A stretch of 64,000 nt of DNA. Origin: a virus. The notes under the pieces are model-generated. The model was given only the letters and a program-made list of their open reading frames with translations, had not been told where the DNA came from and searched no databases. Shown in pieces: positions 1-50,357 of this stretch; the first letter of the stretch is position 1; every line of letters begins with the position of its first letter. A program made the position numbers and the translations under genes. The stretch is from IMG/VR virus record IMGVR_UViG_3300019487_000319, one strand, 5' to 3'.

Positions 1-165
1 ATTAATAAAGACACTAAAAAATCATTCGGAGAATTATACAGAGATACTATATTAAAACTTGAAAAATTAAAATCAATGGGTTACAATGTAAAATACATTT
101 GGGAAAATGATTGGAAAAAATTTCAGTGTGGAATAGATAAAAAGATTAAAATACAGAATATTTAA
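1..165 (+). CDS. 3' end of an endonuclease-like gene (Vsr/PD-(D/E)XK-type homing-endonuclease tail); the 5' end lies outside the window
   Basis: Frame 1 is open from the window edge to TAA at 163-165 and ends ...LEKLKSMGYNVKYIWENDWKKF. A similar tail (IRLLHIFEYHWIKNK) follows the nuclease core of ORF 46783-48339. Confidence 0.4.
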   Translation: MNKDTKKSFGELYRDTILKLEKLKSMGYNVKYIWENDWKKFQCGIDKKIKIQNI

Positions 166-14368: not shown

Positions 14369-14659
14369 ATGCAATTCAAAAAAATAAATCCGGCGATGTT
14401 GGTGTATCATTACTTTCAAAGATCGCCCAGTGAATTTGTTTTATTTGATGATGAAATGGATTTACCTATTATTTACGGTAGTCGAAATCTCGTCGATTCT
14501 ACCGTTAGGAAACTTTCCTCTTCTGTAACGATTATTTATTACAAAAGAGATAATTCTGAGAAGGCCGCATTTAAGAGAAACGTTATATACAAAGGTAAAA
14601 AACCAGAACCTTCACTGAAGCCAACCATTGAAGTTGAAAGGGTAAAACCTAGCCCTTAA
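14369..14659 (+). CDS. hypothetical protein (isolated plus-strand ORF)
   Basis: 96-aa ORF in an otherwise minus-strand region. No motif. Confidence 0.35.
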   Translation: MQFKKINPAMLVYHYFQRSPSEFVLFDDEMDLPIIYGSRNLVDSTVRKLSSSVTIIYYKRDNSEKAAFKRNVIYKGKKPEPSLKPTIEVERVKPSP

Positions 14660-20304: not shown

Positions 20305-21078
20305 TCAACTAAAAAACGGATTTTCGGTCTTATTATCGACTTTGATTTCCTCTATTTGTTCCTTATAGATAGTATCTTTTGGATAGGGTAAAAATGGGTG
20401 TTTTAGATTGGCTAATATTTTCTTCTTTTCGACCTTATTTCCCAATAAATACACATATCGATGTTTGGTGGATTCTTTTTTCCTCCAGAACGTTTTACCG
20501 ATGGTCTTTTTCAAATGTTCTACGTTATGAGAACCATAAGTGGAAAAGGCGGTTCTTGAATGCATCCATTTATACGGTGGCCCGATTTCTGAAATAGAAT
20601 AATTAGGCATTAAAGCTAATGAAGAATTCCCTTGATAGTAAAATCCTGAAGCCTGATAGATGGTTCCTCTGTGACCTTGTTCATTATCAGCATAACTTAT
20701 TACGGCTTTAACGTTAGGAAGATGCTTTGTCAACATCGATAAAGTCTTTGATATACAATAACTTTCTATATTTTTGCCGTATCCATCATAAATGACTAAT
20801 CGGGTTAATTCCGTAACTTGTTCCAAGGTTATGAGTGGAGATATAGATTCGGCTGCACTTCTTCCAACCGGGCCGCCGTAGATGACTGTTCCGATTAATT
20901 TTTCCTCATTGCCTTCAATGAATTGGGAGGGAGTTTTTGTATTAATGAAGATACCAAAAGCCACATCACATAGGGTCCATTTGTGACTATAATGATTTTT
21001 TTCGACAAATGATTTACCTATATCTTTAGGAATTACCCGTATTGACACGAGTGATGTATCGACATAACCTTCTTCCAT
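20305..21078 (-). CDS. Mom-like acyltransferase-fold protein (candidate DNA-base-modifying enzyme)
   Basis: FVEKNHYSHKW, AFGIF, IGTVIYGGPVGR, ELTRLVI..GYGKNIESY and VISYADNEQGHRGTIYQASGFYYQG. This block order is that of the phage Mu Mom family as I recall it. Confidence 0.6.
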   Translation of the reverse strand: MEEGYVDTSLVSIRVIPKDIGKSFVEKNHYSHKWTLCDVAFGIFINTKTPSQFIEGNEEKLIGTVIYGGPVGRSAAESISPLITLEQVTELTRLVIYDGYGKNIESYCISKTLSMLTKHLPNVKAVISYADNEQGHRGTIYQASGFYYQGNSSLALMPNYSISEIGPPYKWMHSRTAFSTYGSHNVEHLKKTIGKTFWRKKESTKHRYVYLLGNKVEKKKILANLKHPFLPYPKDTIYKEQIEEIKVDNKTENPFFS

Positions 21079-26892: not shown

Positions 26893-27771
26893 ATGAACTA
26901 TCCAGATATTAACATTCTAGTCAACGGCAACCGTTGCAAATTCTATTACCACGAAGGAAAAACATACATTGAGGCTAAACATGGCTCTGAGTATGAAATT
27001 GAAATTAAAAATACCGGCTGGGGTCGTATAGAAGCTGTGTGTTCCGTTGATGGACTTTCCGTAATGACCGGAAAAAGTGCGGACGAAAAAGAAAATGGAT
27101 ACGTAATTGACGCGTATCATCCTCTAAGAATCAAGGGATTTAGATATTCTAATGACCATGTAGGTTCTTTTAAATTCGAGTTAAAGGAAAATTCCTACGC
27201 AGCTTCTAAAGGAAAGAAAGCCAAAAGAAATTGTGGTGTAATTGGAATTCGTTTGTTTGAAGAAGAACAGGAGCCTGTTCTTCTTCCGACTGTATGGATA
27301 AATCACATTTATCATCATGATGATTTTAATCCAAAACCATATACAAAACCTTATAAACCATATTGGGATGACAATATTACATGGTGTGGAACGAATTCTT
27401 TGGGTGGAAATTTTAGTACAACTCATGAAATAAACCTATCAGGATTAAATTCATCGGTATCTACAAAAGGTTTGTCAGTACAGCCTATGAAATCTTGTTA
27501 TGATGCTAATGTTCTTCGTTCGGTTGAACAAAAAGCAAAAAAACAACCAAAGGGATTTGATATGGGTACAGCATGGGGGTCTAAAAAGGAAAGCAAGGTT
27601 GTCACGGTATCATTCAACCGTGGCTCTATGGGATTCTCTACGGATATCTATTATGCAAGTCGAGACTCATTGATTGAAATGGGGGTGCCTATTGAAAATC
27701 ATACAAAAGTCGTGGCACCAAAAAGTTTTCCTGGTGGATATGCCCAACCGCCTAAAGGATGGAACGGATAA
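26893..27771 (+). CDS. hypothetical protein (stand-alone plus-strand transcription unit)
   Basis: 292-aa ORF with the RBS-like aaagaaagagataagattATG. It is followed by a strong hairpin terminator. No recognisable motif. Confidence 0.6.
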   Translation: MNYPDINILVNGNRCKFYYHEGKTYIEAKHGSEYEIEIKNTGWGRIEAVCSVDGLSVMTGKSADEKENGYVIDAYHPLRIKGFRYSNDHVGSFKFELKENSYAASKGKKAKRNCGVIGIRLFEEEQEPVLLPTVWINHIYHHDDFNPKPYTKPYKPYWDDNITWCGTNSLGGNFSTTHEINLSGLNSSVSTKGLSVQPMKSCYDANVLRSVEQKAKKQPKGFDMGTAWGSKKESKVVTVSFNRGSMGFSTDIYYASRDSLIEMGVPIENHTKVVAPKSFPGGYAQPPKGWNG

Positions 27772-45902: not shown

Positions 45903-45978
45903 AATTGACCTTTCTTTTAATAACGTTTTAGTCTATTAAACGATTTACCCTCACAAGAAGCGTAAACCTTATCAGAAT

Positions 45979-46006
45979 ATATATAGAGTAAAAATAAGGT
46001 TTCAAG
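45979..46006 (-). promoter_or_regulatory. promoter candidate upstream of the sHSP gene: exact CTTGAAA (-35 of sigma32 type) with a CTATATAT -10-like box 13 nt downstream
   Basis: The minus strand reads aaCTTGAAAccttatttttactCTATATATattc. It can also be read as a sigma70-like TTGAAA plus TATATA. Confidence 0.35.
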
Positions 46007-46089
46007 TTATTTTATTCAGATAAAATTCAATGATGGATGTTGTTTTTAACTCCATTCTTAAACTCTTTATTGTCTATTGAACATGTGAT

Positions 46090-46134
46090 TATAAAAACGA
46101 AAACTCTCTACTACTAAAACAAGCAGTAGAGAGT
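46090..46134 (-). terminator. rho-independent terminator after the tail tube gene
   Basis: The minus strand reads CTCTCTACTgcttgttttagtAGTAGAGAG (9-bp stem) followed by TTTTCGTTTTTAT. Confidence 0.6.
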
Positions 46135-46166
46135 GTCCCTTAATAGGATTATTAGGCAGTATATAA

Positions 46167-46658
46167 TTAAAACTGTAGTATGGCGTAGTCGTACGACAAA
46201 GTAAGTGTAATTCCGAGTGGGTCGCCATTGTTCGTCCAGTCTAGGGTCTGGAAATCGGCATTAGTGATGAATGCACCTTTCAATGTCCATTCCTCAACCT
46301 TATCACCGACTGGTCCAAGGACATTTATGGTTATGTCCTTTTTATAGAAATCTTGATATCCATCACGGCCAGTAACCGATTCGTGAGAAAGACGAATCCA
46401 TTCCATTACAGCTTGGGCACCGGATGGAACAACTGGGTCATAAAGTTCAGCAGTAATTTCGTTCCAAATCGTCTTTCCTTTGTAGTATCTTTGAAGGTTG
46501 ATGTGGTCGAGGGCCTTGCGTTCGCTAGTTGGCTTTGGTCGGTCACATTTCTTCAAAATGAACGATGGGATACCATCGACATACATGATGAAACGATTTT
46601 GTGTTTTTGTTTCGAAGGCCGTCCAGAATATCTCATTGGAATTTAGTAAATCTGCCAT
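46167..46658 (-). CDS. tail tube protein (T4 gp19-like)
   Basis: 163 aa. FIMYVDGIPSFILKKCDRPK...NEITAELYDPVVPSGAQAVMEWI...WTLKGAFITNADFQTLDW...ITLTLSYDYAILQF matches the gp19-type pattern. Its context is the tail module. Confidence 0.7.
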   Translation of the reverse strand: MADLLNSNEIFWTAFETKTQNRFIMYVDGIPSFILKKCDRPKPTSERKALDHINLQRYYKGKTIWNEITAELYDPVVPSGAQAVMEWIRLSHESVTGRDGYQDFYKKDITINVLGPVGDKVEEWTLKGAFITNADFQTLDWTNNGDPLGITLTLSYDYAILQF

Positions 46659-46694
46659 AAAATTATCTTTCTTTTAATGTTTTATAATCCAACA

Positions 46695-46707
46695 CTAATA
46701 TAAATAT
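46695..46707 (-). promoter_or_regulatory. conserved box ATATTTATATTAG (late-promoter-like), 36 nt upstream of the tube gene ATG
   Basis: The plus strand reads ctaatataaatat. The identical 13-mer is at 52208-52220, with near-identical copies at 58114-58127, 45346-45357, 51811-51822, 54734-54746 and 42496-42508. Confidence 0.4.
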
Positions 46708-46782
46708 ACATCAAATAATAATTTGATTTTTTTTGTATTCGATTCTTAATTATTGTTACTGCGTTTGAACCAATGGATCAAT

Positions 46783-48339
46783 ATGAATAAAGAACCGATT
46801 ATTAAAAAATGTGAAGTCTGTGATAAGGATTATGAAATTCCACATCGAAAAAGGAGCAAAGCGTCTCAACGGAGATTTTGTTCTAAGTCATGTTCTAATA
46901 GAAGTCCCGATGTTTTAGAAAAAATACAACGTAACAAGTTACTTACATATAGGAAAAAATATGGCGTGGATCACCCAATGAAAACCAAAGAAGTTGTTTC
47001 TAATTTTAAGTCATCTATGAAGGAAAAATATGGGATAGAACATGCTTTACAGTCGTCGATTTTTTTACAAAAATCCAAAGATACTAAATTAGAAAAATAT
47101 AGTGATGAAAATTTTAATAATGTAGAAAAGATGAAAAAAACATGTTTGGATAAGTATGGTGTAGAAAATTATGTTTTAACAGATGAGTATAAGGAAAAAA
47201 CAAAACAGACTTGTTTAGAAAAATACAACGTAGAATTTCCTTCACAAGCAAATTCATATAAGGAAAAATACAAAAATACAATTTTTGATAGATTTTTATC
47301 ATCTGGAAGATTCGATAATTTTACTCCATTATTTGATATAAAAGAATACAACGGTGTTCTTAAAAATAAAAAATATGAATTTAAATGTGATAGATGTGAT
47401 CAGACAGTTTTGTGTAATTTAAATGATGGCAGGTTTCCATTTTGTTTCAAATGTGACAAAGATGACGCTTCATACGGTCAAAAGGAAATATACGATTTCT
47501 TAAAAGAAGAATTGGGAAACGATGTAACAATTTTAACAAACGAACGAACTATTTTATATCCTAAAGAAATAGATATTTATATACCTTCATTAAAACTAGC
47601 CATCGAATTCAATGGAACATATTGGCATTGTGAATTAACAGGAAATAAAAATAAAACGTATCATCTTAATAAATCAAATAAATGTATATCTAAAGAAATT
47701 CGTTTACTTCATATTTTTGAATACCACTGGATAAAAAATAAAGAAATAGTGAAATCTATATTAAGAAATAAAATAAATGTTACAAAAAATAAAATATATG
47801 CTAGAAATTGTTTTATTAAATCCGTAGATATGCATGATTGTATCGAGTTTCTTGACAACAATCACATTCAGGGACGTGATAAAAGTAGTTTTAAATACGG
47901 ATTATACTATGATGATGAGTTAATATCCATTATGACTTTTTGTAAATCCAGATTTGATAAAAAATATGAATATGAAATGTCACGTTTTTGTAATAAATTA
48001 AATCTATCTGTGATTGGTGGATCATCCAAACTTTTTAGTTATTTTATTAACAACCAAAATCCAAAATCTATAGTGACATACTGTGATAGAAAATATTTTG
48101 ATGGTTCTGTTTATAGTAATTTAGGGTTCACCTTTGTAGGCCATACACCACCAAATTATTATTATGTTAATCAAGAACACACTGAATTATTTAATAGAAT
48201 GTCTTTTCAAAAACACAGACTCCAGAAAAAATTATTTTCCTTCGATAAAAATCTATCTGAGTGGCAAAATATGAAAAATAACGGATTTGATAGAATATGG
48301 GATTGTGGAAACTCTAAGTGGGTATGGAAGATAAATTAA
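46783..48339 (+). CDS. three-part homing-endonuclease-type protein: KYG repeats + Vsr/PD-(D/E)XK-like nuclease + Mom-like acyltransferase-fold domain
   Basis: First ATG at 46783 (MNKEPIIKKCEVCDK). There are four ~25-aa repeats (KKYGVDHPM / EKYGIEHAL / DKYGVENYV / EKYNVEFPS). The nuclease core is KEIDIYIPSLKLAIEFNGTYWH...LLHIFEYHW. The C-terminus is FLDNNHIQG..YGLYY..EMSRF..VIGGSSKLF..IVTYCDRKYFDGSVYSNLGF. Confidence 0.6.
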   Translation: MNKEPIIKKCEVCDKDYEIPHRKRSKASQRRFCSKSCSNRSPDVLEKIQRNKLLTYRKKYGVDHPMKTKEVVSNFKSSMKEKYGIEHALQSSIFLQKSKDTKLEKYSDENFNNVEKMKKTCLDKYGVENYVLTDEYKEKTKQTCLEKYNVEFPSQANSYKEKYKNTIFDRFLSSGRFDNFTPLFDIKEYNGVLKNKKYEFKCDRCDQTVLCNLNDGRFPFCFKCDKDDASYGQKEIYDFLKEELGNDVTILTNERTILYPKEIDIYIPSLKLAIEFNGTYWHCELTGNKNKTYHLNKSNKCISKEIRLLHIFEYHWIKNKEIVKSILRNKINVTKNKIYARNCFIKSVDMHDCIEFLDNNHIQGRDKSSFKYGLYYDDELISIMTFCKSRFDKKYEYEMSRFCNKLNLSVIGGSSKLFSYFINNQNPKSIVTYCDRKYFDGSVYSNLGFTFVGHTPPNYYYVNQEHTELFNRMSFQKHRLQKKLFSFDKNLSEWQNMKNNGFDRIWDCGNSKWVWKIN

Positions 48340-50357
48340 ATCTTTTGGTCAATAAAGACCTCCAAGTGGTCAAGGGCATATCCTTTTGATAATCGGTTTG
48401 GATTCATTCCTTGAGATTTTGCATCCGTGGCCATCTTATGTAATTCCTTCTTGAACGCTTCCCTAAAGGTTGCCATATCGGTTTTAACCCACTCATTTTT
48501 TCTATCTAACACGTTTTCTTCCTTAACGTGACTTCCGAGATGATGCCAAATCGGTCCACTATAAGAGAATTTCTTTCGATAGTCGTTATTGTATAAGAAT
48601 GATGTATATTTTTCATCATAATCTATATCATCGTCATCATTGAATCCTTTATTTTTCCTTGAAAATGACCACGCACCGTTTGGTTTGTCTGTCATCGATA
48701 GATAGTCAGGGTGTTTGTTTGTTATTACATTTCCATTCTTGTCTCTGATGTAAGTAATTCTTTGTCTCTGACCCTTTCCTCGTTTCTTTGGGTCAACAAA
48801 TTCACTACCACCTAACAACAATTTTTCAATATACGGCCAGACAAAAGCGTAAATTCCCCTCTTCGATGGAGGTCCATGAAATGTGGTAGGCGGTCCTTTG
48901 TATCCTTTTTGTTTTGTTAAACTAAGACCACCAAAAGTAACAAACTCCATTTTTTTATCTTTAAATGGATTATGTTTTCCTTCAGCAACTTTTCTACCCC
49001 ACGTTATGTATGGGTCATGCATTCTAAATTTATCCATATCTGACATGTGCATTGACGAACGGTGTTTTACTATATTTTTACCTGTTTTTGTTTTAATCCA
49101 ATCTGACACTGAATCTTTTACATCGGAACTTGGATTTCCCCACCAAAAAATAAAATCAGAGTCTTCTCTCCATCTATCATCATTCCTATTATATCCTGGA
49201 ACCTGCTGATGCGTCATAGTTTCACTATCTGATGATATAGCTTTTACATGTAAATCATCATCAACTAGACCAATCCATATACGTGTTCCTTTTGATTCTT
49301 TGTAAAATGATTTTTTGTATTCTGGATGTTTTAAATCAAATGCAGCATCTTTTGGATGTGGAATTAAATACTCTTCCGGAGTATATTTTTTCTTTATGGT
49401 TTTTGAATATTTAGGGTTTTCTTCTCCTGATAAATTAAACTGAACGATGGTAGGGTCAAGGACTGTTCCATCTTTTAATTCTATCCAAGTATGTTGATGT
49501 CTTCCTTGTCTAATAATATAACCTTCTACAACCCAAAAATCTTTCATACCCCTTTTTATTGCCTCTTCTGAAAATACTTTAGTAAATTCCATACAAACAC
49601 CAGATTTATCACAGTGTAATTTATCAGAGACTTCTTTAGCTAAATCGGTGTAATTTTTTTTTAAATCTACTGATTCTTTTAATGTAACTTCTTTATCATA
49701 TAACTGATTAGTTGCATCTTTTAATCTCTTTAAGTCACCAAAATTACGAAGAGCTTTAAACACAATGTTTTCGTTACTAAATTCCCCCTCTTTATTAAGT
49801 CCAGATTCACGATAAGCGGTTATTGATTTCATTAATGATTTCAATTTATCAACATCTTCCGTCTCGATAAATTTTGTTATTTGATCTTTTAACTGATGAT
49901 ACTTCTTTTTAATTTTTTCTTTATCTAATTCTATGTTTTCTCTTTTTGGTTCCTGTATCCATTCATCATGTAAAATAGAATAGATTCCTATGGATCTATT
50001 TGTGTCAGCAATATCTTGAAGATACACTTCAACTTTATGACCTTTAATGTCAATATTTTGGTGTTGAGTATTCCACTTAAAACCAAAATTATCCATTATC
50101 TTTCTTAGGTATTCTGGATTTATTTTCTCCTTGGAAGCATCAACTAATATATGAAGGTCTATATCACTTGTTGGGGTCCAGTTATAATTTGCTGCCGAAC
50201 CTAAAAAGTAAATATCTTGAATACCACCTTTAAGGTCCGTGGAATCATAAAAGTCCTTGGAGATTTTTAATAATCGTTTGCGAATCTCCGGTTTGAGTTT
50301 CATATCCTCATTCCAAAGATTCGGGTCTAACGTTTTATTGTAAACCCTAAGTTTCAT
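48336..50357 (-). CDS. multidomain protein: Pol-beta-type nucleotidyltransferase + transglutaminase-like Cys protease fold + unknown C-terminal domain
   Basis: YFLGSAANYNWTPTSDIDLHI is the GS-x(n)-DxD NTase motif. GVCMEFTKVF...GRHQHTWIELKDGTVLDPT gives the C...H.W.E...D(P)T transglutaminase-core pattern. 673 aa. Confidence 0.55.
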   Translation of the reverse strand: MKLRVYNKTLDPNLWNEDMKLKPEIRKRLLKISKDFYDSTDLKGGIQDIYFLGSAANYNWTPTSDIDLHILVDASKEKINPEYLRKIMDNFGFKWNTQHQNIDIKGHKVEVYLQDIADTNRSIGIYSILHDEWIQEPKRENIELDKEKIKKKYHQLKDQITKFIETEDVDKLKSLMKSITAYRESGLNKEGEFSNENIVFKALRNFGDLKRLKDATNQLYDKEVTLKESVDLKKNYTDLAKEVSDKLHCDKSGVCMEFTKVFSEEAIKRGMKDFWVVEGYIIRQGRHQHTWIELKDGTVLDPTIVQFNLSGEENPKYSKTIKKKYTPEEYLIPHPKDAAFDLKHPEYKKSFYKESKGTRIWIGLVDDDLHVKAISSDSETMTHQQVPGYNRNDDRWREDSDFIFWWGNPSSDVKDSVSDWIKTKTGKNIVKHRSSMHMSDMDKFRMHDPYITWGRKVAEGKHNPFKDKKMEFVTFGGLSLTKQKGYKGPPTTFHGPPSKRGIYAFVWPYIEKLLLGGSEFVDPKKRGKGQRQRITYIRDKNGNVITNKHPDYLSMTDKPNGAWSFSRKNKGFNDDDDIDYDEKYTSFLYNNDYRKKFSYSGPIWHHLGSHVKEENVLDRKNEWVKTDMATFREAFKKELHKMATDAKSQGMNPNRLSKGYALDHLEVFIDQKI

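Follow-up and report, generated by a model that had tools for sequence, protein, structure and literature searches.

What kind of gene is the lone plus-strand reading frame at positions 46783-48339 of the IMG/VR virus record IMGVR_UViG_3300019487_000319, which joins a nuclease-like and a Mom-like domain in one chain, and is it mobile? To address this question we analysed the first 64 kb of the 250,813-bp record (64,000 nucleotides, hereafter the window). We conclude with high confidence that the product of this gene is a homing endonuclease of the Hef type, encoded by a free-standing gene and belonging to the Vsr-like EDxHD family. It is a new, divergent member of this known family, has the architecture that is usual there, and carries a Mom-like domain that has already been noted in print. 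A preliminary description, made from the sequence alone, had remarked on the rarity of plus-strand genes past 7.1 kb, and this was borne out by a scan for open reading frames (ORFs) that start with ATG, encode at least 90 amino acids (aa) and are not overlapped by minus-strand ORFs: three such genes were found (14369-14659, 26893-27771 and 46783-48339), the last being the sole one in the 34-64 kb region, as had also been stated. The frame translates without a stop into an intact protein of 518 aa (P0001), and the same protein is on record in a metagenome protein collection. An alternative upstream TTG would add 10 residues; the homologues begin near the ATG in our alignment of 45 family members (alignment A1). 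The gene and its immediate surroundings on the tail side are as follows.

46783..48339, plus strand: Hef-type free-standing homing endonuclease gene, stop included (open frame, PHROG 3339, BLASTP to U5 Hef, homologues)
46659..46782, no strand: divergent intergenic region from the Hef start to the tail-tube start, which holds the right-hand edge of the cassette
46167..46658, minus strand: tail tube gene (T4 gp19-like; weak Pfam match), its 5' end being the likely target and co-conversion zone

The family assignment is carried by matches that extend over the whole chain. PHROG 3339 ("homing endonuclease") matches P0001 end to end (E 9e-127, residues 8-516), and BLASTP aligns the protein with Hef of the T-even phage U5 over residues 108-510, through both the nuclease and the GNAT domain (E 3e-50, 32% identity). 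By tblastn, the family was located in 421 cultured or assembled phage records, where its members are annotated as Hef, Hef-like or EDxHD homing endonuclease, and where several copies per phage are common; Campylobacter phages have them at 9-11 places, PA5oct-like phages at 5. The metagenome protein collection holds more than 3785 homologues; all 120 matches listed cover at least 89% of P0001, and among the matches listed P0001 is at most 65% identical to other proteins on record. An NCBIfam search with P0001 gave no match, phmmer with P0001 against PDB sequences returned nothing meaningful, and megablast of window positions 40-52 kb against cultured phages found no match. Taylor et al. 2011 (PMC3239194) had already assigned the "bacteriophage Hef type homing endonucleases" to the EDxHD family, and U5 hef is cited, in a review passage, as a unique endonuclease cutting nrdB (PMC2988022). 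F-CphI was considered as a relative and rejected: with its Endo VII motif, it falls into another family (PMC6083498).

The anatomy of P0001 was drawn from alignment A1 together with an AlphaFold2 model that is confident throughout (mean predicted local distance difference test score, pLDDT, 89.6), and five consecutive parts were distinguished.

46783..46905, plus strand: N-terminal zinc (Zn) ribbon, residues 1-41; C10, C13, C33 and C37 are invariant in A1
46906..47307, plus strand: five KYG-type helical repeats (DUF7487), residues ~42-175, from Pfam and the AlphaFold2 helices
47308..47472, plus strand: linker and second Zn ribbon, residues 176-230; C202, C205, C221 and C224 are invariant, with two beta hairpins in the models
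47473..47784, plus strand: Vsr-like / EDxHD nuclease domain, residues ~231-334, with D264, E275, N277, H282, Y293, H294 and K297
47785..48336, plus strand: Mom-family GNAT domain, residues 335-518, with H361, R401, S414, D435, K437 and Y444 and an insertion at ~462-502

The N-terminal ribbon gives a weak zf-FCS match (E 9e-4). The KYG repeats are present as had been described, yet their number had been put at four, and we count five units of ~19-24 aa, starting near residues 58, 82, 104, 123 and 146, with three KYG(V/I) cores, one KYS and one KYN. In the AlphaFold2 model they appear as repeated helices (42-60, 69-83, 92-106, 114-125, 134-148 and 157-173), and Pfam DUF7487, which is found in all 45 family members, covers residues 55-170 of P0001 (E 2e-23). 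The repeats are presumed to form an extended DNA-binding region. Conservation is unevenly spread along the chain: mean identity within the family is 42.5% in the repeats, which are among the least conserved parts, 50% in the nuclease and 57.5% in the GNAT domain, the most conserved part, and 20 of the 38 invariant columns of A1 fall in the GNAT domain.

The two strings that the preliminary description had singled out as the nuclease core, IDIYIPSLKLAIEFNGTYWH and HIFEYHW, lie at residues 263-282 and 310-316, and the likeness to Vsr that it had proposed is upheld by structure comparison. A separate model of the nuclease (residues 176-338, pLDDT 81) retrieved with Foldseek first I-Bth0305I (3r3p; E 5e-4, TMt 0.72, 23% identity) and then RAP domains and Vsr (1cw0, E 5e-3), and a VIA-wide search placed the DUF559 protein 3hrl, Vsr (1cw0) and 3r3p on top (Z 11.6-11.7), above other PD-(D/E)XK folds. 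A profile of A1 run against the PDB likewise reached 3r3p (E 0.0025), with D264, N277 and H282 falling on D196, N208 and H213, of which D196 is the Mg-binding Asp and H213 the general-base His. D264 and H282 are present in 45/45 homologues and E275 in 44/45, and position 277 is N or D in 44/45. Among the 45 homologues, Pfam models matched MTES_1575 in 18, PvuRts1I_N in 7 and Vsr in 3. As modelled, the P0001 nuclease is a Vsr-like variant of the PD-(D/E)XK fold.

Evidence for mobility comes from related genomes. We collected 80 viral contigs with a tube protein 67-89% identical to that of the window and located the neighbouring genes by tblastn; 72 of them had enough upstream sequence to be informative. 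In 29 of the 72, Hef lies divergent from the tube gene, between it and a gene resembling a Pol-beta nucleotidyltransferase (NTase), as in the window; in 30, the NTase-like gene stands directly beside the tube gene with 56-116 bp between them, and the remaining 13 show another arrangement at the junction. Hef is therefore not universal at this locus, and the relatives are polymorphic for its presence at a fixed site, in support of the mobility that the preliminary description had suggested. When the occupied and empty states are placed on a maximum-likelihood tree of tube proteins, at least 7 changes are needed, of which at least 4 are forced by well-supported branches. The GC content of the gene, 26.8% where the window has 35%, also speaks for mobility, as does the Hef-like gene that LIMEstone1 carries beside its own tail-tube gene (PMC3296691). 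The closest pairs show the event at nucleotide level. In their first 80 codons, the tube genes of the empty contigs L012 and L013 encode proteins within one residue of those of the occupied L014 and L010. L012 differs from L014 and L010 by a clean indel of ~1.6 kb, with homology resuming ~15 bp before the ATG of the tube gene. In the left flank, L012 shares 98% identity with L010 and 89% with L014, and in the right flank 86% with L010 and 97.5% with L014; within the cassette L010 and L014 share 84-95% identity over the nuclease and GNAT part and 99-100% over the N-terminal part. This mosaic indicates putative recombination breakpoints at and inside the Hef gene.

The right flank also suggests where the endonuclease might act. 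Of the mismatches between L012 and L014 there, 17/42 fall within the first 86 bp, and since I24L is the sole difference between the two tube proteins in the stretch of the first 80 codons, nearly all of the coding differences are synonymous. A comparison of unique tube genes, 21 from occupied and 26 from empty loci, shows the strongest link to the Hef state at nucleotides 9, 19-21, 30, 35 and 40 of the tube ORF; A30, for instance, is found in 100% of the occupied and 27% of the empty genes, and the tube gene of the window carries the Hef-linked alleles T9 and A30. Because shared ancestry inflates such associations, these columns can serve only as a pointer to the target and co-conversion zone. 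A second Hef copy was observed on the other side of the tube gene in six relatives (L009, L035, L041, L061, L065 and L071), and in L065 this Hef-like gene sits between the tube gene and hsp20. Since relatives carry a Hef-like gene on that side as well, the tube gene is flanked on both sides by homing-endonuclease hot spots, and the 264-nt spacer between tube and hsp20 in the window (45903-46166) could be an empty or scarred site.

Taken together, a mechanism of ordinary homing can be proposed. In genomes that lack Hef, the Zn ribbons and the variable KYG repeats would recognise a target site at the 5' end of the tube gene or adjacent to it, the nuclease domain would cut it during mixed infection, and recombinational repair from the Hef-bearing genome would copy in the 1.6-kb cassette with a short flanking tract. 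The Hef-bearing genome would itself escape cutting mainly through the near-all-synonymous substitutions in the tube 5' end, substitutions at the target being the ordinary way in which homing endonuclease genes avoid self-cleavage. The idea that the Mom-like module provides self-protection, raised in the preliminary description, appears somewhat weakened by the clustering of these substitutions at the putative target.

Several observations weigh against an active homing endonuclease with this target. The column aligned with the catalytic D222 of I-Bth0305I is His294, which is invariant in the Hef clade; position 315 is His in P0001 alone and Glu in 42/45 relatives; there is one Hef copy in the 250-kb record and with it no within-genome sign of spread; many of the related contigs are near-duplicates; and the target site is deduced from linked polymorphisms alone, which are confounded by shared ancestry. 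Some of them would also fit a decaying or domesticated Hef copy, immobile and merely undeleted so far. The single copy and the unique E315H substitution would agree with such a state, as would the low GC content of the gene (26.8%, compared with 35% in the window and 42.7% in the adjacent tube gene) and its identity of only 52% to the Hef of the nearest relative, whose tube gene is 84% identical. Yet the full-length frame is open, all four cysteine pairs of the Zn ribbons and the consensus residues of nuclease and GNAT domain are intact, and the AlphaFold2 model is confident over the entire chain, and we hold a decaying copy to be very improbable.

The reading of the gene as a Hef-type homing endonuclease leaves the question of what its C-terminal domain is for. 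The preliminary description had related this domain to Mom and the GNAT fold, and the structure comparison agrees. The domain is modelled at pLDDT 93-97, and Foldseek with the whole-protein model against the PDB ranked Mu Mom (8bv8) first (E 2.3e-6), followed by ordinary GNAT acetyltransferases. On VIA re-alignment, residues 339-518 align to many GNATs (Z 12-13.5, root-mean-square deviation 2.5-3 Å). Mom has a Z of 12.6 and, at 157 residues, the longest alignment of the matches listed; other GNATs reach Z ~13 over 121-142 residues. The model has extra helices (472-499) between strands, which may correspond to Mom's helix-turn-helix-like insertion between the last two strands.

The same description had noted motif blocks shared with the Mom-like ORF at 20305-21078. 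That ORF was confirmed on the minus strand as a full Pfam Mom match (E 5e-43), and the shared blocks proved real and colinear by hhalign and profile hidden Markov models (HMMs), though weak at the sequence level. BLASTP of P0001 against this ORF reached only E 0.1; hhalign against the window's Mom-family alignment gave E 0.002, aligning NH.., E..R. and.Y.D...G..Y...GF and pairing EMSRF with ELTRL, the E-x-x-R strand that holds R401; and reciprocal HMM searches between Hef GNAT and Mom returned colinear matches of ~1e-6 to 1e-7 per sequence. The Pfam Mom model (PF25680) gave no match on P0001 at E <=1 and was matched by 4/45 homologues (best E 2.6e-4). Many short fragments of the Hef-type GNAT domain bear a precomputed PF25680 label, and in the ESM Atlas the nearest clusters consist of viral proteins of ~190-198 aa with Mom labels and, in some clusters, canonical GNAT labels; 16-26% of the members of these clusters carry the PF25680 label.

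Residues of Mu Mom (PMC13219725, PMC7261163) were mapped from Mu through P0121 to P0001. The equivalence of S124 with 414 derives from equal spacing to the Arg, by sequence rather than by superposition.

Mu H58: H361, in 45/45 homologues
Mu Y59: I362, Ile or Leu across the homologues and not kept as Tyr
Mu R111, the Mom-specific Arg: R401, in 45/45 homologues
Mu S124: S414, Ser in P0001 and 3 others, Ala in 40/45
Mu D149: D435, in 44/45 homologues
Mu R151: K437, Arg in 40/45 and Lys in 5, P0001 included
Mu Y159: Y444, in 44/45 homologues

The Arg at Mu position 111 is kept in Mom homologues and not across GNATs (PMC7261163), and it is invariant here. Because P0001 has no PF25680 match, only 4 of the 45 homologues have one, and these residues differ in part, the Hef GNAT domain is a divergent sister group of Mom and not a core member. 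Many proteins of 180-280 aa were observed that consist of the Hef-type GNAT domain alone (P0241-P0360 and the ESM Atlas clusters). Some of them come from long contigs, such as P0252 with 218 aa on a contig of 152 kb and P0241 with 283 aa on one of 85 kb; such proteins might be products of genes in their own right or of Hef genes that were split or truncated. The stand-alone Mom at 20305-21078 keeps H29, Y30, R93, S106, D131, Y141 and W171 as equivalents of key Mu Mom residues, with Glu133 in place of Mu's essential R151, and is widespread in this phage group (549 homologues, the 120 matches listed being 59-90% identical).

If the domain were an active Mom-like adenine acyl- or aminoacyl-transferase, the chain could act as a restriction-modification system of its own, marking the phage DNA and leaving the nuclease to attack whatever host or co-infecting phage DNA is unmarked. 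Iyer et al. have proposed this in print for jumbo-phage Mom-nuclease fusions, in which momylation would protect the phage while the nuclease attacks other DNA (PMC7824862, section 3.4.7; 2021). That paper counts five Mom-nuclease fusion enzymes in PA5oct and never uses the term "homing endonuclease", and the Hef passages of the homing-endonuclease papers do not mention Mom; in these passages, the two literatures treat the same proteins without citing each other. Such restriction by momylation does not conflict with homing and may come on top of it. The retention of H361, R401, D435 and Y444 in 44-45 of the 45 homologues and of Ser414 in P0001, the putative Mom-type insertion between the last strands and the position of the GNAT domain as the most conserved part of the protein all speak for it. 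Against it stand the equivalent of S124, which is Ala in 40/45 where S124A abolishes the activity of Mu Mom (PMC13219725), the aliphatic residue in place of Y59, and the Asn of U5 Hef at the D149 equivalent. The clustered near-all-synonymous substitutions beside the insertion would moreover be needless if modification protected the site, and the phage already has a separate full-length Mom gene. To our knowledge, no modified base has been reported in Hef-carrying phages, which we also count against it. On balance, restriction by momylation strikes us as rather unlikely.

Alternatively, the domain could be a non-catalytic relic that serves as a structural part of the nuclease, be it a dimerisation platform, a DNA clamp or a base-flipping reader. 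Mu Mom is a dimer, and a double-strand cut needs two active sites. I-Bth0305I, too, acts as a dimer (PMC3239194). Besides Ala for the essential Ser in most members and Asn for the essential Asp in U5 Hef, this reading draws on the 7/45 family members that match the PvuRts1I-like nuclease model, with a possible analogy to the SRA-like domain fused to a Vsr-like nuclease in PvuRts1I/AbaSI, and on self-immunity that looks sequence-based. It has to account, however, for 20 invariant columns, among them those of the Mom-specific Arg and of the acidic residue and the Tyr in the active-site cleft, which is more conservation than a scaffold usually needs, and for an xxGG(A/S) loop before helix 3 that resembles an intact GNAT cofactor-binding loop. 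We regard a purely structural role as a serious possibility that nonetheless falls somewhat short of probable.

No other part of the Hef family is as well conserved as the GNAT domain, and its function therefore does not depend on the target. Since its conservation exceeds even that of the nuclease, the domain can be neither an appendage in decay nor the part that reads the specific target. This leaves an active DNA modifier, a non-catalytic module that flips bases or clamps DNA, and a dimerisation platform. Our best guess is that, within a Hef-type homing endonuclease, the Mom-like domain would engage the DNA close to the cut, flipping an adenine there and perhaps acylating it. That the domain is catalytic we put forward only tentatively, judging from its residues, and we would sooner doubt than assume it. 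Equally speculative is the further idea that Hef-type genes are two-enzyme selfish elements in which cutting and adenine marking are coupled in one chain. Given an xxGG(A/S) loop of canonical appearance, the donor might then be an acyl-CoA instead of a charged tRNA.

On the other side of Hef, the surroundings of the cassette differ from those in most relatives. The adjoining 673-aa ORF (48336-50357, minus strand) has an N-terminus that matches a Pol-beta NTase (Pfam NTP_transf_2, E 5e-5), and in most relatives this NTase part is a separate gene of ~230 aa directly beside the tube gene. Positions 46676-49693 of the window, which span Hef and the C-terminal ~440 aa of the 673-aa ORF, have no counterpart in the Hef-less relatives L006-L008, and this C-terminal part, together with Hef, is common only to L003. 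It may be cargo travelling with the Hef cassette, or the result of a gene fusion. The tube gene itself (46167..46658) is recognised by a weak Pfam Phage_T4_gp19 match (E 8e-6, 26.1 bits against a gathering cutoff of 28.2 bits).

The other plus-strand ORFs, 14369-14659 and 26893-27771, gave no usable Pfam or PHROG family, the latter having a sub-threshold DUF7918 match (E 0.009); they might be inserted or mobile genes too. ORF 1-165 (plus strand), cut by the contig start, had been said to end with the same nuclease tail as the Hef gene. It does carry a Vsr-type tail (IWENDW, where the family has IFENEW), but its match to the Hef profile is weak (p 2.5e-4 over 26 residues of the tail of the nuclease profile), and BLASTP against P0001 found nothing. 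The ORF ends 12 residues past its YIWENDW and lacks a GNAT domain; it probably encodes a Vsr-like nuclease of another, shorter kind, and from its sequence a paralogy with Hef cannot be demonstrated here. It also gives a weak Pfam RAP-domain match (E 0.036) and, among PHROGs, only a weak family of unknown function.

For annotation the consequence is routine: the gene is due the label of a Hef-type (EDxHD) homing endonuclease with a Mom-like GNAT domain. Within this phage group, NTase-tube junctions with and without the gene can be compared unusually cleanly, and they point to the first ~40 nt of the tube gene as a candidate target. The role of the Mom-like domain is a question for a whole family of thousands of members and not for this locus, and if it were true that the Hef-type GNAT modifies adenine, a widespread class of DNA-modifying enzymes would be hidden in genes annotated only as nucleases.

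Compared with known systems, P0001 stands closest to U5 Hef and the Hef-like proteins of PHROG 3339/559 (RaK2 hef, Acinetobacter phage 133, the Campylobacter CP220/CP81 group and F-LimIII/VII/VIII/X of Dickeya phage LIMEstone1), with which it shares a full-length alignment through nuclease and GNAT, upstream KYG-type repeats and the position of a free-standing gene between conserved genes. In LIMEstone1, the Hef-like gene F-LimVIII even lies beside the tail-tube gene (PMC3296691), as in the window. P0001 is nevertheless only 31-42% identical to the members from cultured phages (tblastn), and U5 Hef lacks the second Zn ribbon, has Asn where P0001 has D435 and is cited as cutting nrdB, whereas the target of P0001 is presumably the tube gene; most Hef relatives have Ala at the S124 equivalent of Mom, where P0001 keeps Ser. 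I-Bth0305I (3r3p), the EDxHD prototype, shares the nuclease fold and, at three aligned positions (D264=D196, N277=N208, H282=H213), the active-site layout, but it is intron-encoded, uses NUMOD and helix-turn-helix DNA-binding motifs, has no GNAT domain and carries D222 where the Hef clade has His294. Mu Mom (8bv8, PF25680), a Gly-tRNA-dependent modifier of DNA adenine at N6, shares the GNAT fold, probably the extra insertion before the last strand, and colinear motif blocks that include the Mom-specific Arg (R401), H361, D435 and Y444; it is free-standing, whereas the domain of P0001 is fused to a nuclease, its Y59 equivalent being aliphatic and its S124 equivalent mostly Ala in the relatives. 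By analogy, the Type IIG/IIL restriction-modification enzymes MmeI and BpuSI and the enzymes PvuRts1I/AbaSI may be likened to it as single chains that combine a PD-(D/E)XK nuclease with a base-flipping modifying or reading domain; their partner domain is a methyltransferase or SRA-like and not a GNAT, they are defence enzymes and not mobile, and the homology that we claim extends to the nuclease fold and no further.

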